From Psammoneis japonica (Eukaryota), in contig QPGO01000209.1 in assembly GCA_008632985.1 (NCBI GenBank), forward strand, positions 62,001-123,326: a DNA stretch of 61,326 bases. The letters are read 5' to 3'. The notes below the pieces were generated by a model, which did no database searches, had not been told where the DNA came from, and worked only from the letters and a program-made list of their open reading frames with translations. The position numbers were made by a program, and so were the translations under genes. Positions 1,793 to 48,178 of this stretch are shown here, piece by piece (position 1 is the first letter of the stretch; every line of letters begins with the position of its first letter).

Positions 1793-2974
1793 GTGTCAGC
1801 GGAGCCAAGACTTCAGAACGTCCAATCCACGGGTCACGGCAGCAGTTGACCATGCCAACAAATGACCGCAGGTCGCGTTCATTGGTTGGGGTCGCGATTT
1901 GCTTAATGGCGTCAACTTTATCAGGCATTGGTCGTGTTCCGTCTCTGTTGACCAGGCAACCCAAGCACTCCAATTGGGTTTGACAGAAGTGAGATTTGGC
2001 TGTGTTAACTTTTAGTCCTGCTTTCTGGACCCTCAACAAAACTTCTTCAAGTTTGTTGAGATGATCTTCATGGGTGCCTTTCGTCAAGACGAGAAGGTCA
2101 TCTAAGTGCGTTCAAACAAACGACAGATCTTCAAACAAGCCTGACATGCGTTCTTGGAAAATGTCTGGCGAATTGCATGACCCCATGGGCAATGCCTGCA
2201 TCTCACACTTGCCCCACGGGAAGATGAGCATGCAGAGCTTCTTGCTGTCAGCATCCAATCGGATGTGACAACAGCCCGTGTTTAAATCCAGCGATGCAGC
2301 CCACACAAAGCCTTTGAGCTTGAGCAGCACATCTTGGACATGAGGAATCGGATGAGGCAATCGCTTGATCCATTTGTTCAGCTCTCTGAAATCATTGACA
2401 AAGCGCACCATTGAGTCTTTCTTTGGCACGACAAATGATGGAGCTGCCCATTGGGATCGGCCAACGCATTTGAGAACACCGATGCGCGCCAGGCATTCTA
2501 CTTCTTTACGCAGCGCAGCTTCGCACACACGAGGTGCTTTACACGGACGAGCGTGGTGTGGTTCTGCACCCTCCTTGAGTTGGACATGGCAGGGTTCTCC
2601 CTTCCATTCTCCCAATGTCCCATCAAATGAGGACTCATGGCGTTTCAACAGTGCCAAAAGGTCGTTTTGTTGAACTGCAGAAAGTCCCATTGCTCCTCGC
2701 ATCATGTCTTCGAGGCAGGCCGGCGCGTGCTTGGCGTCTGAAATGCGTGAAATCCAGTTGGTTTCCGAAGACAAGGCTTCTGGATCTTGAAGATAGAAGG
2801 GGGTTTCTGCCGCAGCATCTGGGTGCCTCATTGGCGCTTCTCCATTGACCAATGGCCACTCTGTCATCTGTTTGGAGAAGACAATGTCAATGCCTTGTGT
2901 CTCCAGAATGTCACGTCCAACAATCATGTCGCACTTGCCCAACTTTCCGTTGTGTGCGTGGACGGCATGTTTAA

Positions 2975-3508
2975 GGTAATCGCAGAACGAAGGGGCAAAG
3001 GCACGACAATTTGATTTTTCAGGATTTTCTGCTGCACGAGAAACGCGCAGCGCGCTGCGCGCCTCGTCGCCAACAATCGGCGACGTGACGGTGGTGCGTT
3101 GTCGCAACGACAGAGATGACAGCGACGTGTCCCAGCGTCTTTTGTCGTTGTGGACATTTAGTTTGTCATGTTTAAGAATGCATTCAGTCATGAAAGTCCC
3201 CGCGAGCAACCTCCATTAGAGCGCAAAACGTCATGCCAATGAGGAGCTCTGTTTTTCGACCGTCGTTTTATGCATTCGATTGTCAAACGATTGTGAGTTC
3301 GTCCGGGGGACTTTCTTTGCATGCATGTGTTCTGCATGGTGCAATTGATCAATGTGTTAAGTGCCCATCGCAAATTGTCCTCCATCAGCATCTGAAAATT
3401 GTCATCGTCATCGTCGGTGTCGACGACAATTTGTCGCGCAAATCGCAAAAAATGCACGGCAGTCGTCTGTCTGACATTGCGCTGCTGTGCGCTCGTTGTG
3501 CGCATGCC
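2975..3508. mobile_element. 534-bp non-autonomous TIR element, GG...CC termini, TTAA target (Kolobok-like)
   Basis: Flanks ttaa (2971-2974) and tcaa (3509-3512); removing it restores the protease-region frame ELSKTAEL-KHAVH; inverted homologue at 30884-31417. Confidence 0.85.
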
Positions 3509-3870
3509 TCAAGTTCTGCAGTTTTGGACAATTCTGGCAACCGAATTTTAATGGCACAGTCGTTGGACGTGCTGAACGAGCCTGCCACCGCAGTCCAGTT
3601 TGTCTCAGCCGTTGAACGGCTTTGCAGATGCTTGCAGTGTCAACTGTCGAGCAGAGTGCTGCTGGCGCCACCATCTGGTGGTGCCTCAATGGTTTGAGTC
3701 TTGCCCTTGCCATGTTTGGTGTTCACAGCCACAAACAAGATTGGAGCAAGATGAGTCTTTTTAACTTGTTTGCGGGATTGGCCTGCAACACGTGTACGAT
3801 GGTAATTCAGTTGTTCATTCACACATTCATCTGGTGCATTAAAACTGCCTGCATTGTGTCGGACCCCTTC

Positions 3871-5016
3871 TCAGGTGTCCGAATCTTTGGAATCACTCAA
3901 GTTGAGGTCGCGGAAGTGATTGAGCTCCTCCTTGCGTGCCTTGCGCTTTTTCTGAGCGTTGGCAAAGAACTCCTTGACCTTCGATCCGATGAGAGCATCA
4001 ATGTCTTCCTCATTCCAAGGTTTTGCATCAGGCTTGCTGCCTCCGTCATTGGAATGTCCAGTCTTGACACATTTCACGTGGTGCTTGAGCTGACAGCAAT
4101 CCTCCGCATGATGTCCACAGTCAGTCCCGTGTGGCATGCACGACTTCTGGGTGTTCCGTTGGGTCGTGATCAACGACTCAGGATTGTCCGTTCTACGTCC
4201 CCGCTTGCGTGGAACCTGAGCATGTTGGTCCAGGTTACCTTTGGCAAGCTCGACCTGCTCGATGCGCTCGCAGAACTGTACAAATTCGGCGATGGCATGC
4301 GCCAACAGGTCAAAATTCTGTAACGTCATGAACTTCTGCCATGCGTTTGGCACACCGCACTCGAACATGTCGCACAGTTCGTCATTGGGTGATGGTGCCA
4401 GTGCTTCTCCATCCTCCGTCACGGGTGGAAACTGAGAGACATGGCCGTTAATTTCAACAGCCCTCGCGACGCAGTCACGAGTGGAAACCTCTGCGGGCTT
4501 GCGCATGAAGCACCTCAGATGACGCTTCTGCAACAGCACCGCCCCATGTGGGAAGATGCTTTCCTTTAGCTTCGCGACGCACACTGCGTGCGTGGCATTG
4601 GTTTCAGATGCCTGCATGTCAGCGGCATTGTTGAATGACGTCAGAGCATCGCCCTGCAGCAGGTCACGCACAAGGGCAAATTTCGCTGGCCCGGTCGTCA
4701 TGTTTTGTCCTTCGTGCACGCGATCCACGTTGCGCAGAAAGATCAGGAGTGTCTCGCATGTAGCCGCAGAAAGGTGCGGGATGCCCATCTCATGCGTTGG
4801 ACCATCCGGATCAGTGGGGTTGTTGTGCAGTTTGAACGTCTGGTGCTCGCCCTGCTGTGGCTCTTTCTTCTCCGGCCGTGCGAATGGAATCGGTGGCTTA
4901 ATCCGCTTCTTCATGGTCGTTTTGAGATTTGTCGGTCCTGCCAACATTTCGTAGTTTCGTTTCTGCAGATTTCGTTGCCTCGCACAATGTGCGGGAGTGA
5001 CATTGCTGTGCCCCAT
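3871..5016 (-). pseudogene. Gypsy gag, open but Tyr-depleted
   Basis: 381-aa ORF with PIPF..TFKL..NP, LL.GDAL..F, QKR.LR.FMRKP and a CCHC-like remnant (CMPHG..CGHHAEDC); lies directly upstream of the protease. Confidence 0.85.
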
Positions 5017-5910
5017 GTGTGCACCAGGCGCTGAAAAAGAAGATGTGTTGCGACTTTGTCGTTGTGAAAATTGCGAGCTAGTTTAGAGTAGAGAAAGTGG
5101 GATCATGCGAATGGGGAATCTTGCCAAATCCCCATTCGTTCGCATTTGGATCGCATCAAATCGATCGTGCGTTCGCATTGTGGATCGTGTGAATCAAGCC
5201 ATCACGCACCATGCACGAGTGATGTCATCGTGTGGAATCACGCTGCCATCGTGGGCCAGACGACGGGCCAGTGTGCTTCACACGGATGCTCTCTTGGCAT
5301 CCTTCTGGAATTGCCCAAGACCTAGAGCCACGCCCTCCTGTGGTTGTGCTTCCCAGGTGCGCGTTAACAATGCTGCTTTGCCGCGTACAAGAGGCTCATG
5401 CATGGTCTCGCCGTGTTGTCCAGCAGCAAGGCATGCTGCAATCTCATCCCTTTCATTGAAGACAAACACTTGACCATCATTTTTTGTTTCAAAAACGTGG
5501 CTTCTGGTGTGTGTGACATTCATGGAGCTTTCCTGGGCTCTTCCAAATGACAGCAGTTCTTTGCTGTCTCCAGTGGCGGCAACGGCACAGCTGGAGTGCC
5601 TGGAACTTGAGAGTTGTTTGGAAGATGCTCTCCAGTCTTCAAATCATGCTCTGCATCAGCATGGCATCCTGGAGATTTGAGGAACTCTTGTTTGTTGTTG
5701 CCATGTTGGACATTTTTCTCCAAGGGATGATGGCGAATTGTTGCATGACTGAAAAGAGTGGAGGGACAGACAGACCAACTGATTTTTTGCCGACAACAAG
5801 GAAAATGCATCATGACCGAAACAAGGCACTTTGGCACCATCTACAATGAAATGAACTCCAAAAATGCAGTGTGATTGACACAAAAGAATGAAACAAAAAC
5901 ATGTTTCTAA

Positions 5911-7544: not shown

Positions 7545-10203
7545 GTTGCCTGTTGACACGGACCGAGGGATCATGCACCGGGAAACGCTGAGGCAACAAC
7601 ATTCTGCATCATTTGACGGCGGCGCCGCAACAAAAATGACGAAGCATAAGTCATACGAAACATTTATCGAGAAATGGTTAAATGGTTCGAGACACTTTCT
7701 GGATGTAGGACATGAGATGTTTGTGTGAAAACGCATGGGGAGAAAACAAAACATTACTCTGGCGATGCGGATAGAGCCGCAAAAAACTTTACAACCGGAA
7801 GAGCAACGATACCGATTTCAAAAGAATGCGTTTCAAAGCCTCCGTTTTGACCTCTCTTGCCACGGTTGTGTGGGCACAAGGTAAGCTGATGACACTTTGC
7901 TCTGCGTGTCTGTCTCTTCCGAGATGGAGAGACGTTCTGGTTCATTTTGCGGCTGACTTCTGATCATGCGAAGCCCTTTATCAATCATCTTGCTAATGTC
8001 AAATCACTGCCGCCTCATCATCAGGCACAACCAAGGACAAGGATCATGTCTATCCACGCTTCACGGTAAGTCCAAAAAATGAGCAAGGGTTGTTGTGTGG
8101 CCAGCTTGACATCACAGCTCACGCTTTTGATCTTCTGCCGAAGCCCCTTGCAGGTGAAGCTTTGCAGAATGAGAAGCCGTCTACAAGCGATGAGAAGCCC
8201 ACTGAGCGAAAGCTCAGCAGGCCTTCTCGCCCAGTAGAGTTCCCTTATGGCAACCCTTGTGTCAATCTTCGGCGAGATTCTGATCCTCACGATGGCTACA
8301 ACAGTGACGGATGGAAGCTCGTCAACTTTTGTAGTGCGGGTGCCACTGGTCGCTATCCAGCGCAGAGACCAGACTGTCACCACAATGATGACGATTCTGC
8401 CTACCACACGCTCAAGTTTCCCTTTACATTTTATGGAAGGGACTTTAGATATGTCTACATCAACAACAATGGCAATCTGTCATTTGACCGTCATAACAGC
8501 AAACCGAGCTTTACAGTGAATGACACACCCATTATTGCTCCGTTATGGTCTGATGTGTACACGGGAGAAGTCCCTTATTATGGGTGTTCGGGCTGTGGTC
8601 ATGTGTGGATGAAAGAAATGTCAGACAACATGTTAGCAGTAACGTGGGAAAACGTCGCCGATGGCTACCATCCAAACGATGATCGATTGAACTCCTTCCA
8701 GGTGTTGATGTCAGACGGTTCGGACCCTTCGATGGGCTTGGGCAACAACATGTGAGTCTCCAAAATGGTGCGTGTCTCAACTGTTTATATTGTCAATGGT
8801 TTTTGCTGACATGAAACTTTTGATTTCTTTTTCAACATAGCTGCTTCTGCTATGCAGACATGAATTGGTCGATAGGAGGTAAAACTGTGGGAGTTTACAA
8901 GGGAGACGGCAGAACGTCCTTTCAGGTTACAACCCCTCCGTTTCCAACCGTGTTCTTAAGTTCTCTCGAAGGCAAAGGCTTCTGTTTCGATGCTGCTGCG
9001 GAAGAGAACATCCCTCCCATTCCCTTTAACTTTCCATCAGATGATAGGATTGACCTCAAGGGATGTGCCTCGATTGATACAGAGTTTAGCTTTCTCAGTC
9101 CTGAGGTTGGTCAGTGGACCACGGTTGAGGTTTATGATGCTCCTACTGATGTAATGACTGTTACAGTACAGAATGGGAACACTGCTACTGTTCGTCTCCA
9201 AATAACTCCCACCGTGAATGCAGACTGGACGTTGAACTTTTTTGTCAGAGACAGCAAGGGAGCTGTTACAGAAAAGGCTCTCAAGGTTACTGCGTCTGGC
9301 TGCCATGATCCACATGGACCAATAATGCGCTGCTCGGACCGACATTTGCGAGCTTCTAACAATCGGTGCCATGCTTGGACCACGATTGATAATGGGTCCA
9401 GATCCCGCAACGGTGCGGCAGCTCGATTGACACTATGGCCGCTTCCGCCTTACCCATTGGGTGTCACCAAGGTGACTCTATGGGCCGCCGATCAATTTAG
9501 AGATGGTAAGACAAACTCTTGCACAAGGACTGTGACGGTCGATCCACCTCGATATGGTCACTGTCCAATAACTCCAGTCATGTACTGCAAGGACGTGAAT
9601 AGAAAAGCCCGTTTCTACCCACTGTGCGACTATTGGGCGACCGTTGATGATGGTTCTCATGACCCCAGAGGTGGTAATTTGACTCTTGTCCAAAACCCTC
9701 CGCCTCCCTACGGCATTGGATACACAAGAGTGACACTCAAGGGAACGGATAGAAACGGTGTATCCACGACATGCACGGCATCTGTGAACGTTCGAACCTC
9801 TGGTGGCCGTTGCAACATATAGCCGTGGTACGATGTGCGATTAGAGGAAGAACTAGGATTCTGCATATATATTTTTCGGTCCTGAACTGGAATGGCATCT
9901 GCCAAGACAAAGTTTCAATTCGATAGCCAGTGTCGGACCGATACATGTTTGGATATATACGTCGGAAGGGCAGTGAGGTTGATGACGTTGCATGTGGATA
10001 CACATTTTAATCGATTTATTGTGCATCACTTGGACGTAATCGGGGTGTTTTTGCACACCTTACGCGGTGAACCAAGGATGATGACACTCTATAACATCAT
10101 GGCGAGGTTGCAAGCTTGCTTGATCCTTAGTTTTAGAATAATTTATTAGGCAAACCTCGTGAGCAATTCACCAAGTAGCATGGTTCAGCGGTCGTCCATG
10201 CAG
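7545..10203. repeat. Segmental duplication unit containing the NIDO gene; inverted copies at ~27425-29950 and ~51150-53860
   Basis: Upstream sequence, introns and ~380 bp of 3' flank align by eye between copies; copies B and C also share the adjacent SDR pseudogene. Confidence 0.9.
7826..9822 (+). CDS. Secreted nidogen-like (NIDO) domain protein with two C-terminal HYR/Ig-like repeats, paralog A; join(7826..7880,8025..8065,8105..8751,8841..9822), 574 aa
   Basis: Signal peptide MRFKASVLTSLATVVWAQ; three GT-AG introns at the same positions in all three paralogs with frame preserved; NIDO motifs NDDDS..L.FPFTFYG..YINNNGNLSF, IAPLWSDV, VTW..V, NSFQV; repeats ending PPYP.G.T.VTL...D..G...SCT..VTV. 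Confidence 0.88.
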
Positions 10204-12400: not shown

Positions 12401-13589
12401 GAATTCAGATGCACCATGGACACAAAACAAACAGGAGTTGTCAGACGGCCCACCTCCATCACAGACTTGTGGCTTGATGTTTTCACCATGGTGAAGCACA
12501 GTGAAATTCAGGAAAAATCATGCAAATCATGAGCTGTTCATCCAAATTCGAGCCAAACAAATGGCAAATGACCCCCCTTAAAACATGATCTGGAATGGTC
12601 AAAAAAGGGGTGTGCTGGGGATGAGCAGTTGTCCAAAAGACTGCAGGTCATCTGAACACCACCATCAAAAAATGGTCTTTGTTCTCTGGAAAACGAACAT
12701 TGCCCACAAAATTTCATTTGTAAAGCAACAAGAGGGCTCGTGGTGATTTTGTTGTGTGAGCTTTGCAACCACAAAGGTTTTTGTGCTCAATGACTGGCAC
12801 AAACTGCTCAGCGAAGTTTGTCACAAACTCTGCAACTTTCCGGGTTTTTCAGGTGAAAATGGTGGCTGTCATCACATGCCATCAGGGCTTGTGTGTGTTG
12901 TGCCCTTCCATGACTGTGACAAAATTTGACAATTTTTGGTCATCAAAAACACATCGTGGTGTCAGAACCAATGTCACCCACACAAAATTGAACAGTGTTC
13001 CAACCTTTCTTGCAACTGCAACAGATGCAAATTTGTTCAGGTCACTTTGTTGAGGATGGGTCATTGTTTGGTGGCATTTTTTCAATGGCTTGTGGTGATT
13101 TTTTTTAATTTCCTTGCACTTTGCCCATGTCATTTTGTTGTGCTTCATCACCCCCAAACACTTGTGTGTGTGTGTCCAGCCCCCACCACCAGGGCTGTTG
13201 GAGCCACACATGAGCTGCACCCACCAGCCTTCAGGCACCAATTGCTGCAGCACTTGGCGCAGTTGTCACATTTGACAAACTGCTGTTTTTCACCAAAATT
13301 GGGCTGTTTGTGACAGACAAGCTGCAGCTTTCCAAGAAAGGCCGACAACAACTGGCATTTGACTGGTCACAAACACATTTGCAGTCATCATTCCAGAGAT
13401 CCCAAACCCCCACATTTGTTGTCCATGCACTCTGTGATGTCTCACAAATGGACAAAGAGCAAGTCCAACCCATTGCTGAATTTTTTTGGCAAATGAGCGC
13501 ACTGTTGGTGCAGCAAATCAAGGTGGTCATTTTTTAAATGTCAGCGAGCTCTGAACAAAATTGACTGCTGAATGACGACCCATCCTCAA

Positions 13590-14088
13590 GGTGGTGTGGG
13601 TGCAAAAGTGGACCAGATTCCATGTGCACAGAAAATTGGTGTGTTTTTCACACAAATTGCCAAAGTCACCTTGCCAACTTGAGCCCTCTCCCAGACAATG
13701 GAAACTTGAACATCTCATGTGACTGGTTGTCCAGACTGATCAGCTGCGCTCCCCTTGACTTGGTCCAGCATTGAGACAAACCACATGTTTTCATGCATTT
13801 GTCATTTGCTGCAGCTCTGCAAAAGTTGGACATTGCAATTTTGGCACCTTTCTGATTGGGCTCAGGGTGTGCCTTCAAAAATGCATGAAAACATGTGGTT
13901 TCTCTCCACTGACAAAAGTTGAGGGGGAGGGGTGCAGCCAGCAGGCAGTCTGGACACTTTGTTGTGTGAAATGTTCAAGTTTCCATCACAGAGGGTTCAA
14001 GTTGGTGAGGTGACTTTGGTGATTTGTGTGGAAAATGTGCCAAGTTCTGTGCATGTAGAATCTGGCCCACTTTTGCACCCGCACCACC
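13590..14088. mobile_element. 499-bp foldback MITE, ~210-bp arms, GGTGG...CCACC termini, TCAA flanks (mutated TTAA)
   Basis: 13590-13801 is an imperfect reverse complement of ~13877-14088; tcaa at 13586-13589 and 14089-14092. Confidence 0.82.
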
Positions 14089-14135
14089 TCAACACCACAT
14101 GCGCACGGCACCACACAGTGTGCACCGTGCCTCTA

Positions 14136-17163: not shown

Positions 17164-19346
17164 ATGAAAGTTTGTAAGCAAAACTGGTTTTGCGGCTGGA
17201 TCCTTGCGGTTGCAGTCCTCCCTCGAGCCTGTGATATGGTTGAGGTTCTTGCTGAGACGGGGACATGGAACGATGAGGTAAGTTCCTATAAACACGTCTT
17301 TATCGACCGCATGTTCAATGTACAAGGAACAAAAAGTTTTGGCGTTTAAGCTGATCTTGTCCCGGCTTCTGTAATCTCGTAGGCTACGCCGCAAGAAGAA
17401 ATTGATTCCAATTCACGGCGGCTTCAACCTGCATCAGATGGGGTCCAGGGAGGCGCCGCATTTGGACCAGATGATACCAACGAACCCCAGAAAAGGCTGC
17501 TCGCTACTGGGCACTTCCATCTACGAGCAAGCGGTTCTAATCCAAGGAGCCTTCAACCTGTGTCAGACCGGGTACAAGGAGGCGCGTTTGGAGCAAATGT
17601 AACCAGCGATCCCGAGAAAAAGCCGCTTTTTACTGTAAGTTTTCACCCACGAGCATTGTACAGCAGTCACGTTCAATTCATTATCGACTTACCGGTTGTC
17701 GCTTTGACTGCCAGCATGTAGTTCCGTACGAAGAAGCAGACGCCAAGGAGGAACAGGACCCTTCAATCGTAGCACGACGTACTGCTCCGGAAATTTATCC
17801 TCAGTCCGGGACGCAGTTGCCTAACCTGGTTTGGAGCCCACCCTACAGAGTGAAAATTCATGTGGAAGGAACCTACGCGTATCTCGGCTTGGATCAATCC
17901 AATAAAGTGTTGATCTACGACGTTTTGGATCCGAGAGCGCCCGAATATGTTCAGTCAGTTGACACGTGCTTTGGGCGCGACATTCGTGATCTGTGGGTTT
18001 CTGGCAATCACTTGTGGGCAGCACACCGTTCCGGTGGACTCACAATGATTGACATCTCGGATCCCAGAAAGCCCGTGATCCCACCAAAATGCTTTCCTGA
18101 AACATACTGCCACAAGTGTCTGATCTCGGAGGGAAATTACCTCTTTTACGCTGGACATCACCTCTCAATCTATGAGATAACGGGTGATTCTCTGCGTCTG
18201 ACTTCACGTAGCGCTCGCATTCCCGGGGGCGGTCGGGAGGTGGTTGTTAACGGAAACTATGCATACGTGGTCAGCGACAATGCTGTTAATGCTCCCGTCA
18301 ACATATACGATGTATCAAACAAGAGGACAGCGCCTTCTCTGGTCAGATCTTTCAGACCACCTGCAGGAAAATTTCCCCCATATCAAATGATTGTCTCCCG
18401 TGATCGAAAGAGACTTTATGCAACAGCAAGAAATGCCAGTGGTTTTGGCGAAGGATTCTATATCTTCGACATTGACGGTGCAAAGGCCGTCAATCCTCAA
18501 CTCCTTGGCAGTGTCACGAACCACCCGCGTGCGTTTCATATTGCACTTGATGACGATAACAGTTATCTCTACGTCAAGGAACACTGGGGGGTGGCATCTT
18601 TCTCCGTCTACGACGTGAAAAATGCCACCTCGCCGAGAGTGAGGGATCGCGTACACCCGAACCCCTACAAGCCAGTTGTCTCCCACAAGGGGTTCCAAGA
18701 TGGCGGCTTGTGGTACTCAAACGAACATTTATACACTGTCGAGGGAAATTATCTAATCATTTACAATGCTCACATCCGTTACCGCTTCTGGTGCAAAGGA
18801 CATTTCTTGAATCTTGATCGCGTTACCAAGAAGCCACGGAAAGGGTCTTGTTATGCGTACGACACGCTGTACCAGGATGTGTGCCCGCCAGTCAACACGA
18901 GGGTTGCCAACCCTCAATATTCTCTTCCTGGTGGCAACAGCCCCGACTGTCCTTTGCTTTGCTGCGGAAGTGGGGGCGCGGGTGGGACTTGTCCCTTCTC
19001 GCCGGACAATAGCTGGCGGAAGCCGTTCCCAACAGTGATCGTTCCGGCATGCGACGGCAAGGAAATTCCTGATGAATGTGAGGTTGTGTTAAAGACGAAT
19101 GAAGCTGGCCAGCCTTACAAGACATGTTCTGTTCGGGAAGGCAACTGGATCTTTCCATCTATCTCGTGTTGGACTGGCAACGACTTGACGAGTGAGGTTC
19201 TCCTGGGACGGAATACAAGGGTTACTTTGTGCCGCCATGCTGGCGAATGCGCGTATGGCGGTGAAATTTACTCGCGAGGGAGACTCTCTCCCCCCATGTC
19301 CATTCGATTCCCTGGTCTCTCTGAGCTACGCGTTCAATGTCTATAA
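17164..19346 (+). CDS. Secreted LVIVD-repeat (beta-propeller) protein with Cys-rich C-terminus; join(17164..17277,17383..17634,17715..19346), 665 aa
   Basis: Hydrophobic N-terminus; two phase-0 GT-AG introns join cleanly onto ORF 17817-19346; repeats VEGTYAYL..VLIYDVLDPRAP, VSGNHLWAA..LTMIDISDPRKP, VNGNYAYV..IYDVSN, FYIFDIDG..NPQLLG, VYDVKNATSP. Confidence 0.85.
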
Positions 19347-25344: not shown

Positions 25345-26015
25345 AATCAATCAACATCCCTGCTTGTTTTTCTCAAGCTCTAATTTGCACAGAAGCCACA
25401 CGCTGGTTTCTGTGCATTTGCGTGCATTTCATGCCAGTTGCATTGCAGTGGGGTGTTGTTTGCCGGCCCAGATGAACTCTTCCTTTGACGTGAAACATTT
25501 TTCACAACAACCAGCACAGACTGCCGGCTCGGTGGACAAGTTTTGAGTGGTGCAAACACGCAGATCCTACGTTGAATTTACAGTGCTCAGATTTATTTGG
25601 TGCAAATCTATGCAGCATTTTGCGCAGGGTGCACACGGAGCATGAGCAGGGATGTTCCTGCTTGTGCACAGAAATGCGCAGCAAGGTCCTGAACATTTTT
25701 GATGGCACAGAACCTCACCATGGGCTTCTGCCATCTGCAAGAAAGCTGCGTAGATTTGCACCAAAACACATCTGAGCACTGTGCGTCTGCGGCAGGATCT
25801 GCATGAAAAGAACTCGAAACATGTCCGCCGAGCCGGCAGTCATGTGCCGGCTGTCATGAAAAGCATTTCATGTCTGAGAAAGAGTTCGCAGGGCCGGCAA
25901 ACAACACACCTCTATGATGCAAATGGTGCAAAATCTGCGCAAATGCACAGAAACCAGCCCATGGCTTCTGTGCAAATTAGAGCTTGTGAAAAACAAGCAG
26001 GGACATCTGAAATCA
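25345..26015. mobile_element. ~670-bp foldback element with ~290-bp imperfect arms
   Basis: Arm pairs 25355-25445/25915-26005, 25519-25570/25792-25851 and 25581-25616/25746-25781 share a centre near 25680. Confidence 0.8.
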
Positions 26016-26151: not shown

Positions 26152-26992
26152 ATGTCCATGTTGTCAAGCGCGCCCATGCTCCAAACATGTCTTGGCAATG
26201 GGAGCCAACAAGGGAATTGGTCGTGCCATTTGCAAGGCCATTTTGGAGCAAACACCCGGGTGTTCCAAGTCAAACTGCAAAGGAACTTTTACAAGAAATT
26301 CCAGAATGCTGTCAAGATTGTGTGACAATTATTTTCATTGATGCAACCAGTGATGAATCCGTAAAATCTGCAGCTGAAAAAATGAGTGGGAGCAAGCTGT
26401 TTGGAATTGTCAGTGACGCGGGAATTGGTTTTGGCCGTGGCGTTGAGGAAACAATCGACACCAATTGTTTTGGTCCACGTGGAGTAAATGGTGCCTTTTT
26501 CAAACATTTGGTGCACCCCGGTTTTCGCATCGTAAACGTGGCGAGTGCCTTGGGTCCAAACTTTTTGAGCCGCTGTGCGGACGAGGACCTGAAAAAGAAA
26601 AATTCACCACGCCCACCCAGGTTGTAAAGGGAGGCCATTTCCGAGCTTCATGAGTTGGCAAACTCGCATTTCTTGAAATCAGATCATGACAATGATGCCT
26701 GCGGAGTGAGCAAGGCGTTGCCAAATGCGTGTGTGCGGCCATGCACGCAAAGGCCGAGCCGGAACTTGTCATCAATTCGTGCTCTCCGGGGTGCATGCTC
26801 ACAGATTTAACAGCGGGCATGGGTGCTGCGAATCCACCCTCCAAAGGTGCGGTTTGTTCAGTGTCGCTTTTGTGTTTAGAAGACCATTTGGGAAACCCAA
26901 CAGATCACTTGTGTGGCAGTGACTGTGTCCGTAGTCCGTTGCACTTTGGCCGAGGTCCCGGAGATGAGCCTCATGAAGGACCGGATGCCCAG
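26152..26992 (+). pseudogene. Short-chain dehydrogenase/reductase (carbonyl-reductase-like) pseudogene, copy 1
   Basis: VLAMGANKGIGRAICK (TGxxxGIG), GIVSDAGIG (NNAG), TNCFGP, RIVNVAS, CGVSK (YxxxK), NSCSPG..TDLT; frameshifts; start approximate. Confidence 0.85.
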
Positions 26993-27807
26993 AGCAAGAG
27001 CCAGCTGCATGGAAGCGACACATTTGCTTTAGAATGTTTTGTGCCAATGCCAGAACGTCGACTCCAAAAGATGGCCCTCTTCATCATCCCGACGAGTTCA
27101 GAAGAAGTGTGGGTAATGGGGCTTTCGCGACACCTGCACCATGCTGCGTGCACGTGCAACTGCGTTGCGTGCTCGCTGCAACGCTGAACAATGTTCTCTT
27201 TTTTTTCAAAAGAACGCCATGTCTTTTCGTGGGGTATGACTCTTAGCGAGTTACATAAAGTCCAATTGTCTCAATAGCTCAACATCAGAATACGACGTGT
27301 GCGGTTATCACTTTCTAAGGAATTCTTAAACTAGTAGCAAGAGGAACTACATTGCAGGTCAAAAGCCGAATTGCAAGCTCAAAAGGATCATTCTACGAGC
27401 GAGCGAAAACACTTGAATTGATCAGATGCATGGACGACCGCTGAACCACACTACTTGGTGAATAGCTCACGAGGTTTGTCTAATAAATTATTCTGAAACT
27501 GAGGATCAAGCTAGCTTGCACCTCGCCATGACGGTATAGAGTGTCATCATCCTCGGTTCACCGCGTATGGGTGTGCAAAAACACCCCGATTACGTCCAAA
27601 TGATGCATACAAATCGAGTAAAATGTGTATCCACATGCAACGTCATCAACCTCACTGCCCTTCCGACGTACCGGTATATCCAATCATGTATCTGTCCGAC
27701 ACTGGCTATCGAATTGAAACTTGTTCTTGATAGATGCCATTCCAGATCAGGACGAATAATATATGCAGAATCCTAGTTCCTTCCTCTAGTCGTACATCGT
27801 ACCACGG

Positions 27808-29825
27808 TTATGTATTGCAACGGCCACCAGAGGTTCGAACGTTCACAGATGCCGTGCATGTTGCGGATACACCCTTTCTATCCGTTCCCCTGAGCGTCAC
27901 TCTTGTGTATCCAATGCCGTAGGGAGGCGGAGGGTTTTGGACAAGAGTCAAATTACCACCTCTGGGGTCATGAGAACCATCATCAACCGTCGCCCAATAG
28001 TTGCACAGTGGGTAGAAACGGGCTTTTCTATTCACGTCCTTGCAGTACATGACTGGAGTTACTTGACAGTGGCCATATCGAGGTGGATCGACCGTCACAG
28101 TCCTTGTGCAAGAGTTTGTTTTACCATCTCTAAATTGATCGGCGGCCCATAGAGTCACCTTGGTGACACCCACTGGGTAAGGCGGAAGCGGCCATAGCGT
28201 CAAGCGTGCTGCCGCACCGTTGCGGGATCTGGACCCATTATCAATCGTGGTCCAAGCATGGCACCGATTGTTAGAAGCTCGCAAATGTCGGTCCGAGCAG
28301 CGCATTATTGGTCCATGTGGATCATGGCAGCCAGACGCAGTAACCTTGAGAGCCTTTTCGGTAACAGCTCCCTTGCTGTCCCTGACAAAAAAGTTCAATG
28401 TCCAGTCTGCATTCACGGTGGGAGTTATTTGGAGACGAACAGTAGCAGCATTCCCATTCTGTACTGTAACAGTCATTATATCAGTAGGAGCATCATAAAC
28501 CTCAACCGTGGTCCACTGACCAACCTCAGGACTGAGAAAGCTAAACTCTGTATCAATCGAGGCACATCCCTTGAGGTCAATCCTATCATCTGATGGAAAG
28601 TTGACGGGAATGGGAGGGATATTCTCTTCCGCTGCAGCATCGAAACAGAAGCCTTTGCCATTCAGATAGTTTATGTCTAAAGCTTCAGTGACATTATATT
28701 GTCCGTCCTGGTTGAATCGGCCAAGCTGAAAGGATGAATTACCATCTCCCTTGTTCACTCCCACCGTACTAGCACGATATCCTGTTTTCGGAATATCTAC
28801 TGTCGACCACTCCATGTCTGCATAACAAAAGCAGCTTTGTGGAAAAAGAAAACGAAAGCTTTTTATGTAGCCAAAAACCGCAGGCAACGAAAACAGCTGA
28901 AGGACGCACAAATTTCGAAGACTCACATGTTGTTGCCCAAACCCATGGCAGGGTTTGAACCGTCCGAGATCAGCACCTGAAAAGAATTTAAGCGATCGCC
29001 CATAGCTTCGTGGTTGTCGTGGTATCCAACTTCTTCCCACGTTACTGCTAATGTGTTGTCTGACGTCTCCTTCATCCACACGTGACCAAGATAAAAGCGC
29101 ACAAAGAACCAGTATCCTGTGTCCACATTGTCCCAGAATGGAGCAATCATGGGTGTGCCGCGCCTTGGAAAGCCTGGGATGCGGCTAAAAGAGAAACTGT
29201 AATTACTGTCAAATGACAGATAGCCATTGTTATAGATGTAGACTCGTTTTGTGTCCCTGCCATAAAATGTAAAGGGAAACTGGAGCGTGTGGACAGCGGC
29301 ATCATTGTCATTGTGGTGACAGTCTATAGGCCGCGCCGGACTGCCGCCTGTGGGACCCTTACAAAAATCGACAAGCTTCCATCCGTCGCTGTTGTAGTCA
29401 TCGTGAGGATCATAATCTCGCCGAAGATTGACGCAAGGGTCACCGTAAGGGAATTCGACCGGGCGAGAAGGCCTCGTGAGCTTTCGTTCAGTGGGCTTCT
29501 CATCTTTTGCAGACGACTTCTCATACAGCAGATCAAGACCGTGATCAGTTATGTCGAGCTAGCTACAAGACAATTCTTGCCCAATTGGACTTACCGTGAA
29601 GCGCAGGTGGACGTGATCCTTGTCCTTGACTGTGCCTAAAGATCGTACGGCAGTAATTTGACATTAGCAAGATAATTGATAAAGGGCTTTGCATGATCAG
29701 AAGGCAGCCACAAAATGAATCAGATCGTCTCTCTGTCTCGCACACGCAGAGCAAAATGTCGTCAGCTTACCTTGTGCCCACACAACCGTGGCAAGATAGG
29801 CCAAAACGGAGGCTTTGAAACGCAT
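27808..29825 (-). CDS. NIDO/HYR-like secreted protein, paralog B; complement(join(27808..28834,28927..29558,29595..29635,29771..29825)), 584 aa
   Basis: Same exon structure as paralog A; open frame across all junctions. Confidence 0.88.
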
Positions 29826-30016
29826 TATTTTTGAAATCGGCAGTTGCTCTTCTTGTTGTCAATGTTTTTTGTGGCTCTATCGTCAAGCAGCAATGTTTTG
29901 TTTCCTCTTGCGTTTTCCCGACATACTTATGCTTTGTTTTCTGTTGCGGCGCCGCGTGAAATTCCTCCTATCGTGTCACAATCACGCCCAACAGAATTGC
30001 GAACTCCAATGATTTA

Positions 30017-30797: not shown

Positions 30798-30883
30798 TTA
30801 GGGTGACGACTGCTGTACTCTCTAGCTAGGGCCCTAGACTGTGACTTGACACTTCCACTTTGTTTGGAGATTTCCTCTTTCAA

Positions 30884-31417
30884 GGCATGCGCACAACGAG
30901 CGCACAGCAGCGCAATGTCGGACAGACGACAGTCGTGCATTTGTTGTTGCGATTTGAGCGACAAATTGCCGTCGACTCCGACGATGACATTTTTCTCAAG
31001 CTCTGACAGGACGACTTTGCAATGGGCACTTGTCATGATGATCGACTGCACTGTTCAAAACACGAACGTGTGGACAAAGCTTCGCTCGCGAAGCCTCGGC
31101 AGTTCAACAATGAACGCACAACAGCGACAGGTCGGAAAACAGAGCTCGGCATTGGTGTGATGTTTTGCTTTTGAATGGAGGATGCTCTGGGGGACTTTCA
31201 TGACTGAGTGCATTCTCAAACTTGACAAACTGAGTGTCTGCAATGACAAAAGACTTTTGCACATCGCTGTCATTGCGCTGTCGCCATGACAACGCACCAC
31301 TGTTGTGTCACCGATTTTTGGCAATGATGCACTCACCAGCATGCACAAAGTTTCCAGTGCAAAAACGTTCAGAAAGTCCAATCATCTTGCCATCCATCAG
31401 CTTGTTGTGTGATTGCC
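30884..31417. mobile_element. 534-bp TTAA-target element, inverted homologue of 2975-3508
   Basis: Termini ggcatgcgcacaacga ... ttgttgtgtgattgcc; flanks tcaa (30880-30883) and ttga (31418-31421). Confidence 0.85.
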
Positions 31418-33477
31418 TTGAGGGCGGGTTGTTGTTTTGTGGTCGATTTTGTTTGGAGCTCGCATTTTTCCACAAAAACCCGGATTCCTCACACTGTGAA
31501 CCCTTTCAGTTTTCAGAAAAAGGCCAAACCACTTTGCCGCATTGCAAGTCAAAATCATGTGGTGAAAGCACAGTGAAAAGTTTGAGGGGTGGAGAACGTC
31601 CACATGAGCAATGCAAATGGTTTGACGTCACACCACTGTTGCTCTTGACACATGCAAACTTTGTGTGACTCGAAACTTTTGCTGGTGGAGATGTCAAATC
31701 AAAAATTTTGGACAACCCTTGTCTTGCCATTGCAAAGTTCAGTGAATTGCTTGCCAAAGCCATGCAGGTTGCCAGCAATTGTCAGCTGGAGATCATTGCG
31801 AATTGTCAAGCATGTCTGTTCAATGAGTTTGTGCAGTCAAGATGCGCCCCAGTGTAAAACAGGGCAGGAAATGGGTTGTCTCTTTCCTTTGTGCTTTTGC
31901 TGTGGTTTCCATTTTTTTAACACGGTGAAGTGCATGTGTGATTTTGCACCAAGCGCTGCAGCACGCTGTGGTTTGCTGACTGAAAGGGTTTGTTTGCGTG
32001 CTTGCCAAAAAAACTTTTCAGCAACAGGCCAAACTTTGTCTGATTGCAAGACAACATGGAGTGCACATGTGATGGTTGCAGACATGTGCAATCTGCAGCT
32101 TGATGACAGTGGATGTGGAAAGTCATGACTTGTCTGCTTCAAGGAGTCCAGTGTTGGGCAAAAATGGCGCTTTGTTGAACACAACAACCACACCAAAGTC
32201 AACAATTGGCATTTGAAGGTCAGTGGGTGTAGTTCACACAAAGATCCAACACAGCCCTGATGGGGTCTGGACACACTGTGTGTTTGGGGGTGCTCAGAGG
32301 CATCACAATGTGGCGCGTGGGTGAAGTGCGGGAAAATTTGAAAATCACAAGCCATTGAAAAAAAAACAAGTGTTTCATGTCAAAAGGAGAGTTTGCAATG
32401 TCTGAGATCATGTGGGGATGTTTCCTGGACTTCTGTGAGGTCATTCTTCAGTGCTGTCCCCCCCCCCAAGTGCAATTGGAAAAATCTGTGACCAGGCTCA
32501 GCCAAAACCTCTTGGATGACAAACTCCTCATGATCTTTGCCAAAGCTGTCACCAAAGCTGTGCACCCAAGCTGCTGGCACAGCTGTGCAAAACTTCTAAG
32601 CTGCTCCTCCAGCCCTGGCAAAATTTCCAGCTTTGCTGATGCCATGAGCAGCCAGAGAGCTTGAGCTGGGGCAGCACCAGCATCTTGAAAGCCCCCCACC
32701 CTGTGCAGCAGCACAACACTGCAAACAAAGGCCCAGCAAACAAAAGAGTTGCTGAATGTGCAAAAAACTTGCTCAGCATTGATGTGTTGAGAGGTGCACT
32801 TTGCCAGCTCAAACTGCAGAACCCAACAACACACATGCAGCAAGCTCTTGTTTTTGTGTTTTTCTGATCAGGGCCATTTGGCAATGACCATCACTGTGGC
32901 CCAAACATCAGGTGGCACAGAGCAACCCTGCTGACAATTTCTAGAATCCTGTTGACTGCTGCAACAACACTTTCCTGTCATGTTTTGTCAATTTCTCAGC
33001 AGCTGCAGCATGATTTGTTCACTTCATCAGAGCCACCAATGCTTCTCTTTGTTCTGTGGAGCCTTGAACAGGCAATGGTTCAGTGGCCATTTTCATCAAT
33101 TTTTGTGGCAAGTGTTGTGGATCCATGGTTGCTCACACAACTGTGACATTCACTGTGATCCAATGCAGCTGTGAGTGCAAACATGCTCATGCATTGGACC
33201 CGAGCAGTGCAACAGAAATTTGGTCATTGGAAATGTCTTGTGTGCATGTTCTGCACATGTGTGCCAAGATGTGTGGGGCATGCACAGGTGATGATTTTTA
33301 ATCCTGGTTGCTGTTTGCCATTGTGCATCTCCATTGTTGGCACTCTCACATTGAGCAATTCATGACCACAAAATCACTCATTTTCTCTCACTTTCTTTCT
33401 CACAGCACCACACTTGTGACACCATTGCGTCGCAACTGAAAAACATTCATTTTCACATTGCACGTGGCATTTTTGCC

Positions 33478-33660
33478 AAAAGCGAATAAACACTGATGCA
33501 GCCGCATGGGGTGATGACAGTGCCTTGAGCCTAAGAGCAGCAGTGACAAACCAAAGAGAATCCTGCTCCGATTGGATCGTGTGAGATTGTGGGAAAGAAC
33601 AAACCACCAGATCGTGTGCGTCAGCCCCGGACCAGGGACTGACCACTCCACCCAGATTCA
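33478..33660 (-). repeat. Copia 3' LTR
   Basis: Ungapped match to 39924-40106; starts TGAATCTGGG on the minus strand. Confidence 0.9.
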
Positions 33661-36600
33661 CTCGGTCCCCGCGAAACGGCAGTGACAACGCCGATTCGTC
33701 TAAACCCAGAACATCCTCTCATAGAGAGGCAAACACAAAACCCAAATTCAGACCACCAGCAATGCTGGCTTGGGAGGCCGAAACACGTGGGCGCGAGCCG
33801 CAGGTGTCTGGCCTTGGTGTCAGGACGCTGCCAAAAGACACAAGAGCAAAGTTTCCAACGCCGCTCTCCCGTCGTCACCTTCGTAAAAAAATCCGCCAAA
33901 TTCGTGTCCGTGTCCTCCTTCCCGACGCGAATGATGCCAGCCGCAACCGCTTCACGAACCACATGACAGTTGATGGCATTGTGCTTCTTGTGCAACACAG
34001 ATTCCAGAACACTGACATTCTTCACCACGCCGCGGTTGTCGCAAAACACATTGGCAGGGCCTTCAATCGGTGCTCCAAACATGCGAAGCTTGTAACGCAA
34101 AGCAACAATCAACTCCTTGCAAATGCGCATCGCAACCAATTCGCTGCCAAACGTCGCCGACTCCACTGTGTTCTGCCGCTTGCTAGACCAAGTGATCGGA
34201 GCATTGTTCACGAATGTCAAAATCCCGCCATGCGATCTGCGAGCAACAACGTTTCCCGCATGGTTAGCGTCAACAAATGCAGACACATTTACCGGGTTGC
34301 CACGGGGCTTGGGCATCCGTGGCGGCAACTCCTCCTCAACGTCCCCGTAAAACTCCGTCCAGTCCGCAGTGGAATTGAAAACAGATTCGTCAATCACAGG
34401 CATCTTCGGGTCAAAACCAATGCGACCGACATTCAAATGCTTCTTCACACACGCGAACACATGGTGCAATGCTTCGAGGTGCCCTTTCCTTGGGTTGGCT
34501 TGATGCTGAGAGAGAATGGAAACTTCATGCAAGACATCAACATGGCCCAACTCGATCGCCCAACGACAAATGCCAATCAACTGCAAATGCCTGTCTGCCA
34601 AATCAGGTCCCAACTCGTCCGTTACGTCTAATTCCGGCTTGCACTTGGAAGGCAGTGGGTCCCTCACATTGTTCTTCAAGACTGCTCCGTCACCGTCCTC
34701 TTCCAATGGCCCTTCCACCGTCTTGATCGCCGACTTGATGTGCGACTTCGGTGAGCTTGCCCAAATGGTGCGCCCATCCTCGGTCTGAACCTTCTCAACG
34801 TCGGCTCCAAGGCATGACGATGGCTCTCCTTCACTCCCAGGTTTGACAGTGGATGATTCACCCATGCTCTCGACAACAGATTTTCCTTGATGAGAAATGA
34901 TTAGAATGTCGTCAACATAAACCAAAAGCATTTCACAATGCTCATGCCCATCGTCGCGAGTCGCCGCACGAACACAAACGTCGGGATCCGCCTTTGTTGA
35001 TTCAAAACCCATGTTCCGTAAAACCGATGCCAATGCGGACCTCCAAGAGCATCCAGAGCTCTTCAAACCGTGCAGCGCTCGAGCCACAATTAGAACCTTG
35101 CCTTGGTGCTCTCCACATTCCCTGCCACCTTTGAACCAGATCTTCTCTGCACACGGGGCATTCAAATGCGCGTTCTCCAGGTCGACAGCCGTGATGTCCA
35201 CTCCATTCAATGCTGCCAGCAGGAATCCTAACCGCACGCTGTCCCTCGAAACAACACTTGAGCATGTGATCGATGACGGTGTTTCCGCAGCATGACCTCC
35301 TGCAACAAATCTGGCCTTCCCAGTGAAATCCATCTTGACGTCGAACACCAAATGACACCTGATCTCCTGACAACCACGCAAAGTTGCACTCTTGCCTTCC
35401 CGGACGACTTGAGGGGTTTCAGCTTCATGTTCGCGCCACGCTGCCTTGACCTTGTTCATCTCCTTGTCAATTGCGCGAGCCCAATGGTCCGTCCCCGTTT
35501 CCTGGTCAATCTTCAAAGCATCTTCTGTAGACTTGGGCAAACGCGTGCCGAACTTGTGGGCAGTGCGCCAATGTTTCTTCTTAACCTTTGAGATGATGCG
35601 ATTCCGCTCACGTAAAACATGCGTGACCCACCAAGCAAACACCGGTTCTTCAGCCAACCTGTTCGCAACAGCATGCTCAGCAACTTCAATTGGGTTAGAC
35701 TCCTTCAGATCCTTGAGTTTCACCCACGACGAGCTGCCGTCCTTCCATGCGACCAACAGGTTCCATCCTTTCGCAGTTGTCTTCTTATGTTCCTTCCCGT
35801 CAGCTGTCTGAACTGTTCCTTCCTGGATCGGCACAGCTTCGCCGGTCTTTTCGTGATCCTGCATCTCCTGCAAAATAGAACACTGGTTGCCTTTGCTGTC
35901 AACTTGAGCAAACATGTTCTCCGCGATCACATTGGCAGCATGCTTGTCTCTGGTGCCGTCTGTGTGTTCAATCTCGTGTTCGCGGGTGTCAAACAATGGA
36001 CTCTGATGCCGGGTTCCAATCGGTCGCCCATCCTGACCTCGTGCCCGCTTGACTGCGACTCCTCGCCGTTCAGCGTTAGTCCCAACATCAAACATAAGTT
36101 CCATTCCAAGACATTGATCAATTGCCTGTTCGTTGTCGTCCTCGGGTCGTTTTCCTGGCAATGACATGTCCCCGCATTCCTCATCGGTTGGTGTCACACC
36201 GCCTTCACATTCCACACTGGGGTTGCCGTCGATCGCCAAATCATCCAGTGCAAATGCTGGCACCGCTTCGTCGCCTTGTAAAACGAAATTGGTGTCATCT
36301 AACCGTGCCTCCAGTTGTTCGTTAAACTTGTCGACTTTCACACGAATGTCCGGCTGCACCATGTCGGCCTGCGTTACATGCTCGACCGAAGTCTTCGAAA
36401 CTGTCTTCCCGGATTCCGTGATGATCCAATGACACATGTCCGATCCGACCTTGTGAGATGTGCCAAGCCATCGTCCAAGCCTCCTCGGGTCATCTGTTGC
36501 ATTCGGCTTGTCGTGTCTGTCCCACCACCAGACCAGATCACAGAAACCGAAGTCCAAACATTCGCCCATTTCGGGTGTCTGACCAGTTACCTCTTCACAC

Positions 36601-38150
36601 CCAGTCCGTTTGTCACGGCCTCTTGCCATGCGAGATGCAAGTTCCGATTCACAAACTAGACCAAAATCCCACAATCGTTTCGGCACCTTCTTCCTCGTCA
36701 TCCGCAGGCGCCAACGCTTGGCCAAGAACCCGATCTCTCTTTCTGCTGCGTGATTCTGATTCTTGCAACCTTGTTCCATTGTCCTGAGTTGGATCCTCAT
36801 TCGACGTGCGTGTTTCACAAACTCGGCACTTCGTCCTGTGAACTCTCCAGCACCATCCGATGTGAGACATTCCGGCACTCCCACATCGTCTGTAAAGTCA
36901 ATGAGAGACAAACCTGCCTCCGACCTTGCGGTCATTGGCACAACCTTTACGAACTTGCCCTGAGCACAAACATTGGCACAAGTGTTGCCGAGCAAAGATT
37001 TCACCTTGGATGTTAATGTGTCCACAAACCATGTCCCTTTTAATCTTTTTCGATGCAGGTCCAAGTGATCCACCCTAACTCTCCTTGACATTGGTTGGGC
37101 CGCCGTCCGCACACCGCATTGTGCAGTTACATTGAGAGTGTCCTTAGCCGTTTCCAAGCCGACGTTCCACTTTCGTGCTAGCTCTTCAGCGTCGATCTTG
37201 GAGTGACGGTCCTCACTGCGCAACTCCTCAACAGATCTTGCTCTTTCGTCTGTGTCTGACCCACACGCGCAAGCTGCGTTGACCAAACTGATGAGCCTGT
37301 CACAAAAGGATTTAAGATGATAGACTGGAGACAATCGAGTGAGTTCAGCTTCAACCTCGCCCCATTGGACTGCTTGAGACTTGGCCCTGTCGCTCTTCAT
37401 TTCTGAAATCTGTTCCTGTCTCATGCCAGATGTCATCAAACGGATGGCACGGATCTCAGATTGCTCCCTTGTGCGCTGTGGTAAACCCATGTCGACTTCT
37501 GTTGGATTCCACACGTCTCCTTTCAGCAGCATCACTGGCAAGTTCTTCTCCTCCCAATCCGTCGGAACACGAGACTTGAAAGATGCAATTGTCCCCGTGG
37601 AATTGAAAGGTATGAAAGCTTCATCAGCTTCGATCCCAAACCCATTTCGAGTGTCGCAAGGGTTGTCGTGTACGGGCACATCACACGCTTGCAACTGATT
37701 GGGGTTCAACAATGAATGCTGCATGTCAGTTCCAAACCACAACATTTGGTCTCCAACCAGTGAGCACTCACGAGTCGTTTCCGGATCCGTCCATGCTGTG
37801 CAACAACGCGCCACAGGAATCTGTTTAACCGGCTCATGCGAATCTAGAAACGGGTGCACTTCACAGACTTCGTTCGTCAATTCCATGAGTTTCCAGTTGG
37901 CGCCAGCACAACAAGTGTCCGCATGAGTGTCACATTCGTTCCTCGCCATGAAGCCGGGTGTCGTTAAGTTCGTCATCGCGGTGGCAGTCGTTGACCTTGT
38001 CACACATTTCGAAGTCACAGCAACGCGCCTTTTTGTTACCTTCTCTTGCAAATGAAACATTGGGTGGGGTTTGGTTAACAACATGATGAGCAACATGAAT
38101 GCAAATGACATGTGCACCAAGTGTGCCAACGCTCCCGTAGTTGAAACCAC
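33621..38150 (-). pseudogene. Copia pol, uninterrupted 1509-aa ORF with pervasive missense change; ancestral stop probably at 33828-33830
   Basis: PR DTHADTCCAG; IN WFVDTL..SDGAGEF..NHAAEREI; RT KARFVAGG, DLENAHL, ALHGLKSSG, YVDD; RH FVDANHAG, ESATFGSE, CDN, NLADFFTK; only 4 Tyr. Confidence 0.92.
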
Positions 38151-38159
38151 CCCGATCAG

Positions 38160-47900: not shown

Positions 47901-48178
47901 AAATTTCTCAACATGTCCCGCATGTGGAAGCAAGTGACTTCCCGTCTGCCAATGATGCAAGTGTTGGGCTGGGGCAGGAAAACCTTCTTTCTGAGTTTTT
48001 TTGCCAACAAGTCTCAGCCAAGACACTGGGAACAATCAAACTTCCGCTTCTTGTGGGGTCATCACAAAAGGGAGAGCAGCTGCCTGAAAAATTGACGAGT
48101 GGCACCGGAATTGTCACACAGCGTGATCAGCTCCAGCAAAGCTTCCTCCTTGAGTGAAAAGGTTGGCAAATCATGTGC

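Follow-up and report, generated by a model that had tools for sequence, protein, structure and literature searches.

The 61,326-bp stretch of Psammoneis japonica DNA analysed here (the window; G000:C210:62001-123326) belongs to a 91.4-Mb assembly of 597 contigs, across which the family and profile searches were run. A search for silicon transporters (PF03842) gave 24 matches there, in keeping with a diatom. It contains two copies of a short transposable element (family A), one copy of a second miniature element (family B), and stretches of retrotransposon (Table 1). Family A copy 1 interrupts an element that we take to be of the gypsy type; its upstream ORF (3871-5082), presumably gag, has no Pfam match. 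Each of the six 4-mers in Table 1 abuts the outer side of a GG...CC element end, and all six were confirmed to read as in the original prediction, which had presented them as three pairs of TTAA-type target-site duplication (TSD) halves. TTAA, TCAA and TTGA together make up 1.5% of the 4-mers in the window, and finding them at six of six positions by chance has a probability of about 1e-11. A short-read contig of run X1, whose sample may be the same as the assembly source, covers 13156-13678, including the TCAA at 13586, with 0 substitutions and two 1-base gaps.

Table 1. Features of the window and deaminase loci elsewhere in the assembly. Plain numbers are window positions.
Feature	Position	Strand	Remark
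Left TSD half, family A copy 1	2971..2974	+	TTAA, unchanged; TTTAA context resisting change
Family A copy 1, non-autonomous element, putative Kolobok-type derivative	2975..3508	+	534 bp, GG...CC ends
Right TSD half, family A copy 1	3509..3512	+	TCAA, the bottom-strand A of TTAA changed
Host gypsy-type LTR retrotransposon (our assignment), interrupted by copy 1	2112..5082	-	pol fragment with RVT_1 at 2112-3215
Left TSD half, family B copy	13586..13589	+	TCAA
Family B miniature element	13590..14088	.	499 bp, long inverted repeats, GG...CC ends
Right TSD half, family B copy	14089..14092	+	TCAA; matched pair, alone uninformative
TSD half, family A copy 2	30880..30883	+	TCAA
Family A copy 2, reverse orientation	30884..31417	-	534 bp, zero TA remaining
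TSD half, family A copy 2	31418..31421	+	TTGA; opposite-strand pair with 30880
Copia-type pol frame	33621..38159	-	open, 1512 aa, CG largely intact
ADAT2-like	G000:C26:119854
TadA-like	G000:C38:7371
A_deamin locus L164	G000:C40:112674-113392
A_deamin locus L166	G000:C79:344558-345390

TpA steps are scarce in most of the window. The observed/expected ratio (o/e) of TA is below 0.2 in 41 of its 61 kb, and ranges from 0.0 to 0.2 in the transposon blocks versus 0.5 to 0.8 in genes. Kilobases with a TA o/e of 0.16 and a CG o/e of about 1.0 exist, and short-read contigs reproduce the TA-free kilobases without substitutions. The edges are sharp: the final surviving TA to the left of family A copy 2 lies at 30835, 45 bp from the TSD half at 30880, and marks the end of TA-normal DNA. 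In family A copy 1, 28 of 34 reference TA steps have become TG or CA and 5 of 50 CG steps are changed, at a background difference of 2.7% from the nearest TA-rich copy. The family B copy is old, with 31/34 TA and 21/24 CG steps converted. An open frame of 601 aa with LVIVD repeats (17541-19346, forward strand) forms a TA-normal island between two TA-free blocks.

The loss also reaches the coding frames of the retrotransposons. Tyr accounts for 0.3% of residues in the copia-type pol frame, versus 3.0-5.8% in four neighbouring gene frames, and for 0.2-0.5% in the gypsy-type host, which is likewise TA-depleted. With CG largely intact in the copia frame, its loss of Tyr independently confirms the direction of change, from TAY to TGY or CAY. 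By the genetic code table, a change of TA to TG or CA never converts a sense codon to a stop. Hence no stop codons are created, and the mutated frames stay open. The whole copia-type element (33621-39559, reverse strand) has a TA o/e of about 0.16-0.23 and a CG o/e of about 0.9-1.0, that is, TA was lost without loss of CG.

Family A is 534 bp long, with at least 46 matches from 40 scored candidates, while family B is about 490 bp long and has long inverted repeats. Both carry a TTAA-specific 4-bp TSD and 5'-RR...YY-3' termini, a likeness to Kolobok; the ends read GG...CC in the window copies and GG...CG in one subfamily reference. PiggyBac ends take the form CC...GG, and a piggyBac identity for the two families was rejected, as their ends are GG...CC and not of the 5'-YY type. 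The source available to us describes Kolobok as having a TTAA TSD, 5'-RR...YY-3' ends that differ from those of piggyBac, and a DDD/E transposase with C/DxxH, and reports it in a diatom (PMC9587614). A search with the PF20700 profile gave 12 matches from 18 candidates. One element, G000:C108:191144-195188 (L158:5145-9189), is bounded by TTAA followed by GG at one end and by CC followed by TTAA at the other, and over its last 478 bp it matches family A at 80-83%. Its product is a PF20700 protein of 885 aa (E 4e-41) that contains a DPSH motif, the catalytic residues being assigned by eye; the names given by the Atlas for this partner transposase are 'Mutator-like transposase' clusters only. Given the TTAA TSD, the RR...YY ends and the C/DxxH of the partner, family A is classified, on its sequence, as a Kolobok-type internal deletion derivative and not as piggyBac. 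It differs from Kolobok in being a 534-bp internally deleted form, and no accessory protein (KolX, nuclease, helicase) was identified. For family B, no autonomous partner was found among the loci examined; two truncated family B ends adjoin decayed PF20700 frames (L148, L152). It should also be noted that hardly any TA occurs between 5500 and 6000 in L158 (o/e 0.03), while both TA and Tyr (2.9%) are normal in the transposase frame; the stretch is either a domain edge inside one element or a naturally TA-poor part.

The left flank of the gypsy-type host has at least 40 matches in the assembly, of which 25 were examined; one is the window itself, leaving 24. In all 24 of these insertion-free copies the flanks join across a single 4-mer. 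Thus, the insertion duplicated the 4-mer, which is not element sequence. The empty form is also seen at 2975, in the loose ends of short-read contigs. At the empty site the 4-mer reads TTAA in 10 copies, TCAA in 7, TTGA in 4 and TTGG in 3; the empty host site decays in the same way as the TSD halves do.

Three pairs of loci were considered as shared insertions that might prove timing, and all were rejected: L041 and L044 have common flanks but opposite element orientation, L050 and L051 belong to different subfamilies, and L038 is a family B element in the host TTAA that carries the family A copy in the window. We read them as independent insertions at favoured sites and leave them out of the timing argument. 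The homologous gypsy-type host TTAA has thus taken a family A insertion at window 2971-2974 and a family B insertion at L038 (G000:C65:329833-330322), and the repeated use of a homologous TTAA in the three cases (window/L038, L041/L044 and L050/L051) suggests a target preference beyond TTAA. Back-to-back family A and family B copies with one common TSD 4-mer, now TCAA or CCAA, were seen at L012 (G000:C16:775396-775401), L026 (C261:62549-62554) and L002 (C90).

Ends were then placed in all family loci examined by means of the terminal 26-mers of real copies, which yielded 149 ends and 53 paired copies. The 43 unpaired ends were excluded from the family table and six paired copies were dropped, two as duplicates (C168 and one on C281) and four for damaged or nested junctions (two on C165, and those on C72 and C136), so that 47 remain; L036 and L039, which are 99.9% duplicates, were counted once. 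The table is a sample, with 40 candidates scored per family search. Copies were divided into TA-rich and TA-poor at 20 internal TA steps, the counts showing a gap between 16 and 25.

All 14 TA-rich copies read TTAA/TTAA, with 0 of 28 halves altered, as had been anticipated for young copies; one of them, L122, is partly hit (6/29). Among the 33 TA-poor copies, 40 of 66 halves are altered (Fisher p=4e-9 versus TA-rich). The 66 halves read TTAA in 26 cases, TCAA in 19, TTGA in 15, CCAA in 2, TTGG in 2, TGAA in 1 and TGAG in 1, i.e., 38 of the 40 altered halves are TCAA, TTGA, CCAA or TTGG and carry TA-type changes. Both halves are altered in 14 copies, the left alone in 6, the right alone in 6 and neither in 7 (Fisher p=0.28). 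The alteration rate of TSD halves (38/64) equals that of internal YTAR sites (56/97, p=0.87) and that of the empty host sites (14/24, p=1.0). Survival of TSD halves did not differ significantly with the outer base (12/24 versus 14/42, p=0.20). TSD halves are a built-in timing control, being host DNA that is copied at insertion and never passes through RNA, and their decay fixes the erasure of TA in place and time: on the chromosome, after insertion and on both strands. On this point the original prediction is supported by the family table and the empty sites, and also by the internal spectrum described below.

For the internal spectrum, the reference for each hit copy was the real TA-rich copy nearest to it, and the 18 of 33 hit copies that lie within 5% background divergence were pooled. 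In these copies the reference TA steps now read CA (237), TG (220), TA (110), CG (3) or something else (19), with TG and CA equal within copies (220:237, p=0.45). Sorted by the preceding base, A>G changes number 455/1165 after T, 61/1621 after A, 48/1009 after C and 11/1191 after G, which leaves 0.9-4.8% after non-T bases; A>C plus A>T after T amount to 20/1165. The flanks predict which strand is changed: YTAY gives TG 91:CA 46, and RTAR gives TG 34:CA 84 (p=2e-9). Sorted by the base 3' of the edited A, the hazard is 1.1-1.6 for TAY and 0.4-0.6 for TAR, and the best-surviving sites are YTAR such as TTAA (42%). Furthermore, the TA steps that survive in the 41 TA-poor kb show an excess of TTTA/TAAA (114/240 versus 84/573), the context of the unchanged half at 2971. 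The same enrichment is seen at the empty host site (10/13 versus 0/11), where host subfamily is a possible confounder.

Neighbouring hits form no strand runs (131 same and 145 different against a null of 134, p=0.73; 74 and 58 against a null of 71, p=0.28), and strand-coordinated, processive editing was rejected on these grounds. Strand imbalance at the level of the copy has p=0.81 in family B and is nominal in family A (p=0.044). CG>TG/CA lags behind the loss of TA: in moderately hit copies it reaches about 10% per base, where TA stands at 38-39%, and in the old copies of family B it is 36%. In TAA, the second A is changed in 24/294 cases versus 26/1282 in other AA steps (TGG 13, CAG 10, TAG 1). 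These second-A changes are nearly always coupled with loss of the TA itself (p=0.004), and the CCAA and TTGG halves are thereby accounted for. The cases are concentrated at few TAATT sites, so they are non-independent; the explanation favoured below does not account for the excess in TAA.

Between a TA-rich copy and its closest TA-rich relative, 0.3-2.1% of background sites differ (11% in one case), and close hit copies are alike in this respect (0.3-5%); background divergence between copies dates their common ancestor and not the insertion. In L035, 24 of 34 TA steps are lost while 1 of 353 background sites and 2 of 24 CG steps are changed, an excess of at least 39-fold over background that is a fossil lower bound and not a de novo rate. 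Flanking TA content is higher around TA-rich copies, 13 of 14 having one 500-bp flank with an o/e of at least 0.44 (p=1.4e-5 versus hit copies); 6 of 33 hit copies have a TA-normal flank (>0.5), and neighbourhood is not the whole rule. The TA-erasing process looks switch-like and follows the neighbouring DNA. Part of the two-state pattern may come from survivor bias, in that copies stay mobile only as long as they are unhit.

No hit pattern common to family B copies was found (same-direction share with a median of 0.61 and a range of 0.35-0.86 over 55 pairs). Descent from a mutated master copy was rejected for this reason, and no hit family B copy appears to have spread after being hit. Fourteen repeat copies of families A and B are unhit. 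A triplicated gene of the window has retained its TA steps (91 shared TA versus 28 TA/TG-CA differences) next to a duplicated flank that is TA-poor. This suggests that repetition alone is not the trigger, although selection may also have preserved TA in the gene.

Taken together, these observations almost certainly reflect post-insertion chromosomal TpA hypermutation. They establish its direction, its action on both strands, its timing after insertion, its 5'-TAY preference, its freedom from strand runs, the near two-state distribution of copies, the link to neighbouring DNA and the loss of TA ahead of CG. Very probably, the elements inserted at TTAA and TpA was later converted to TpG or CpA in transposon-rich chromosomal domains. 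The sequence of events would then be as follows: an element inserts at TTAA and duplicates it; a locally acting process later turns TpA into TpG or CpA (A:T to G:C at an A after T, on either strand); and the TSD halves are changed like any other TA step of the same context. In chemical terms, the A may be deaminated to hypoxanthine by a TadA/ADAT-fold enzyme recruited to silenced chromatin, which would act one site at a time, the hypoxanthine being fixed as G at replication. We infer this chemistry with about even odds. It is favoured because the product is almost purely G, a 5' T is required, and engineered TadA8e, in the report at hand, leaves genome-wide A>G/T>C changes that prefer TA sites (PMC13225742). 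The off-target signature of ABE8e comes from an engineered enzyme without regional targeting, and the resemblance is one of spectrum only (PMC13225742). Against it, a deaminase that works on single-stranded DNA should produce hits that run along one strand, which is not what is seen. It is also somewhat probable that the process serves or acts as a defence, given that terminal repeats, target scars and Tyr codons are all rewritten.

A deaminase profile search gave 5 matches from 6 candidates, among them TadA-like, ADAT2-like and dCMP-deaminase-like proteins and a fusion of deaminase and 2OG-oxygenase; these finer labels are our reading of the translations, and none of the proteins is implicated as the candidate enzyme. 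ADAT2-like and related deaminases are expected in any eukaryote, and each of the deaminases here could be serving in ordinary tRNA or nucleotide metabolism, which counts against an enzyme assignment. Outside animals one A_deamin gene is usual. Here two divergent A_deamin (ADAT1/ADAR-type) genes, L164 and L166, are present, the second of which is a candidate; the Atlas places this second locus in generic A_deamin clusters only. The fusion, a 491-aa frame at L144 (G000:C79:88500 region, reverse strand), joins a zinc deaminase domain to a 2OG-Fe(II) oxygenase and probably belongs to nucleobase metabolism, while being a putative candidate for base modification.

A different chemistry acting at the same stage is conceivable, namely that the palindromic TpA carries an epigenetic mark on one of its bases (thymine oxidised so that it pairs with G, or N6-methyladenine that deaminates), with mutation as a by-product of silencing. 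The symmetric site, the sharp-edged domains, the lack of strand runs and the CG decay that follows in the same domains would all suit such a mark. Nevertheless, we regard it as unlikely: no positive sign of a mark was seen here, conversion proceeds fast and almost to saturation while transversions are very few, and the flank rule fits the TA preference of TadA-type enzymes (PMC13225742), although a marking enzyme with its own preference is still compatible.

Error-prone patch repair of the polymerase eta type, set off by T:G mismatches from the decay of 5-methylcytosine in methylated repeats, is less probable again. Such repair leaves A>G at WA, and A>G after A is here ten times rarer than after T. 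The conversion of CG in the same copies and the existence of TAA>TGG double changes are what such repair might leave, but the loss of TA precedes and exceeds that of CG, both in L035 and in the kilobases where CG is near 1.0, and transversions are rare and strand runs absent. We therefore hold this account to be improbable.

A further reading places the inequality of the TSD halves at insertion: the transposase would capture an already mutated TCAA or TTGA, and mismatch repair would then produce either one TTAA flank or two flanks with the variant. The original prediction took the two halves to be identical at insertion, which does not always hold for TTAA transposons, since a piggyBac insertion may end up with TTAA at one flank and, at the other, the non-canonical site that it captured (PMC8717057). 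The same source, quoting Li et al. 2013, puts non-canonical insertions with asymmetric TSDs at about 2%, and the TTAA-overhang mechanism is treated in PMC7351741. By this route a TCAA target should give TTAA or TCAA on either side, and never TTGA on the same strand. As unequal TSDs of this kind are possible, TTAA/TCAA and TCAA/TCAA pairs alone prove nothing. The pair at 30880/31418 is the only one of the three in the window that proves later mutation by itself, while the pairs at 2971/3509 and 13586/14089 draw their weight from the family table. The TCAA/TTGA pair, for which two hits had been claimed, needs at least one later hit, and by overhang reasoning two only if the target was TTAA.

The 14 of 24 empty host sites that are already non-TTAA would offer targets for such capture, and among the 12 classifiable double-altered pairs 9 are changed in the same direction and 3 on opposite strands (p=0.15). 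However, no half is altered in the TA-rich copies, 7 of which adjoin TA-poor DNA (one flank with o/e <=0.27); the three opposite-strand pairs are impossible by capture alone; TSD halves are altered at the internal YTAR rate; the family A partner is not a piggyBac transposase; and the internal loss of TA would be left unexplained. Insertion-stage capture is thus very improbable as the source of the unequal halves. The claim that the halves mutated independently is compatible with the association of altered halves in the table, although strict independence is unproven: the 9:3 tilt, itself nonsignificant, runs against it and leaves room for some captured non-TTAA targets.

Three further readings, namely RNA editing, pre-insertion editing of a transposition intermediate and an assembly artefact, have together hardly any probability, for while ADAR is stated to prefer a U before the edited A (Mettrop et al., bioRxiv 10.64898/2026.01.13.699255) and two A_deamin loci are present, the TSDs are host DNA and the elements DNA transposons, TG and CA are equal within copies, hit copies have no common hit patterns, short-read contigs reproduce the TA-free kilobases, and the TCAA/TTGA pairs already contradict all of these.

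No prior description of TpA-destroying hypermutation in diatoms was found in the literature searched, with most subscription journals outside its scope, and the only other alga found described with such mutation is Bigelowiella natans. Fungal RIP, whose context is CpA, resembles post-insertion TpA hypermutation as a both-strand, dinucleotide-specific process that follows insertion and is concentrated in mobile DNA, and differs from it in that the process described here cannot create stop codons. Furthermore, RIP acts through C>T and enriches TpA (PMC7296669), whereas here TpA is destroyed through A:T>G:C.

In B. natans, according to the available text of the preprint, viral inserts undergo TpA-only A:T>G:C change at about 1000 times background, ADAT2 is proposed, and the signature arose de novo in mutation-accumulation lines (Mettrop et al., bioRxiv 10.64898/2026.01.13.699255). 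The signature found here matches it, in a second lineage. In both, A:T>G:C occurs only at TpA and gives TpG or CpA, and the process is regional, targets foreign or mobile DNA (there integrated NCLDV and virophage DNA) and spares ordinary genes. Both also act on chromosomal DNA after integration, as concluded here from the TSD table and the empty sites. The process is on in some B. natans lineages and off in others, and an ADAT-type deaminase is proposed there, not shown (bioRxiv 10.64898/2026.01.13.699255). Here the copies are nearly two-state, and an ADAT2-like gene is present, as in any eukaryote it would be. The systems differ in that B. natans is a chlorarachniophyte with viral inserts, whereas this is a diatom with affected non-autonomous DNA transposons, TSDs and LTR retrotransposons. 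TA o/e is below 0.2 over most of the window, near saturation, versus 0.45 for a B. natans NCLDV insert. The TAY preference and the trailing CG decay measured here are not reported for B. natans in the text available, while a de novo rate was measured there and the evidence here is fossil only.

With these results, a signature reported until now in a single preprint, for a single alga, gains a second lineage and DNA transposons among its targets. New here are a count of TSD halves across copies, a control from empty sites, a limit on how far independence can be claimed, the finding that hit and unhit copies have equal background divergence, and the putative Kolobok-type partner. More tentatively, and with considerable doubt, diatoms might carry a dedicated, chromatin-guided DNA adenine deaminase that acts at 5'-TAY, site by site and on both strands, is switched per domain, and retires transposons through their ends and Tyr codons without stops; it might also occur in Rhizaria, and perhaps be an old SAR-wide defence mirroring RIP. 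A natural DNA adenine editor, if true, would matter for genome-defence biology and for base-editing tools, and the context rule, together with hit and unhit copies of near-equal background divergence, provides ready substrates for an enzyme search. It should also be noted that dating of transposons by divergence and the building of repeat consensus sequences are badly biased in the P. japonica genome.

The copies of the triplicated gene lie at 7571-10202 (forward strand), 26377-29920 and 50099-53687 (both reverse strand) and have a weak HYR-domain match; the coding part keeps its TA, and the upstream exon is one that we take to be nidogen-like. A 437-bp tandem duplicate at 665-1498 belongs to the same family as an inverted pair at 48179-49294 (390-bp arms, 96% alike; region 48178-49294), apparently another miniature element family, and similar sequence also occurs within two family A copies, L012 and L028. 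At 25357-26003 lies another TA-depleted element of 650 bp, whose long inverted repeats are 74% alike.
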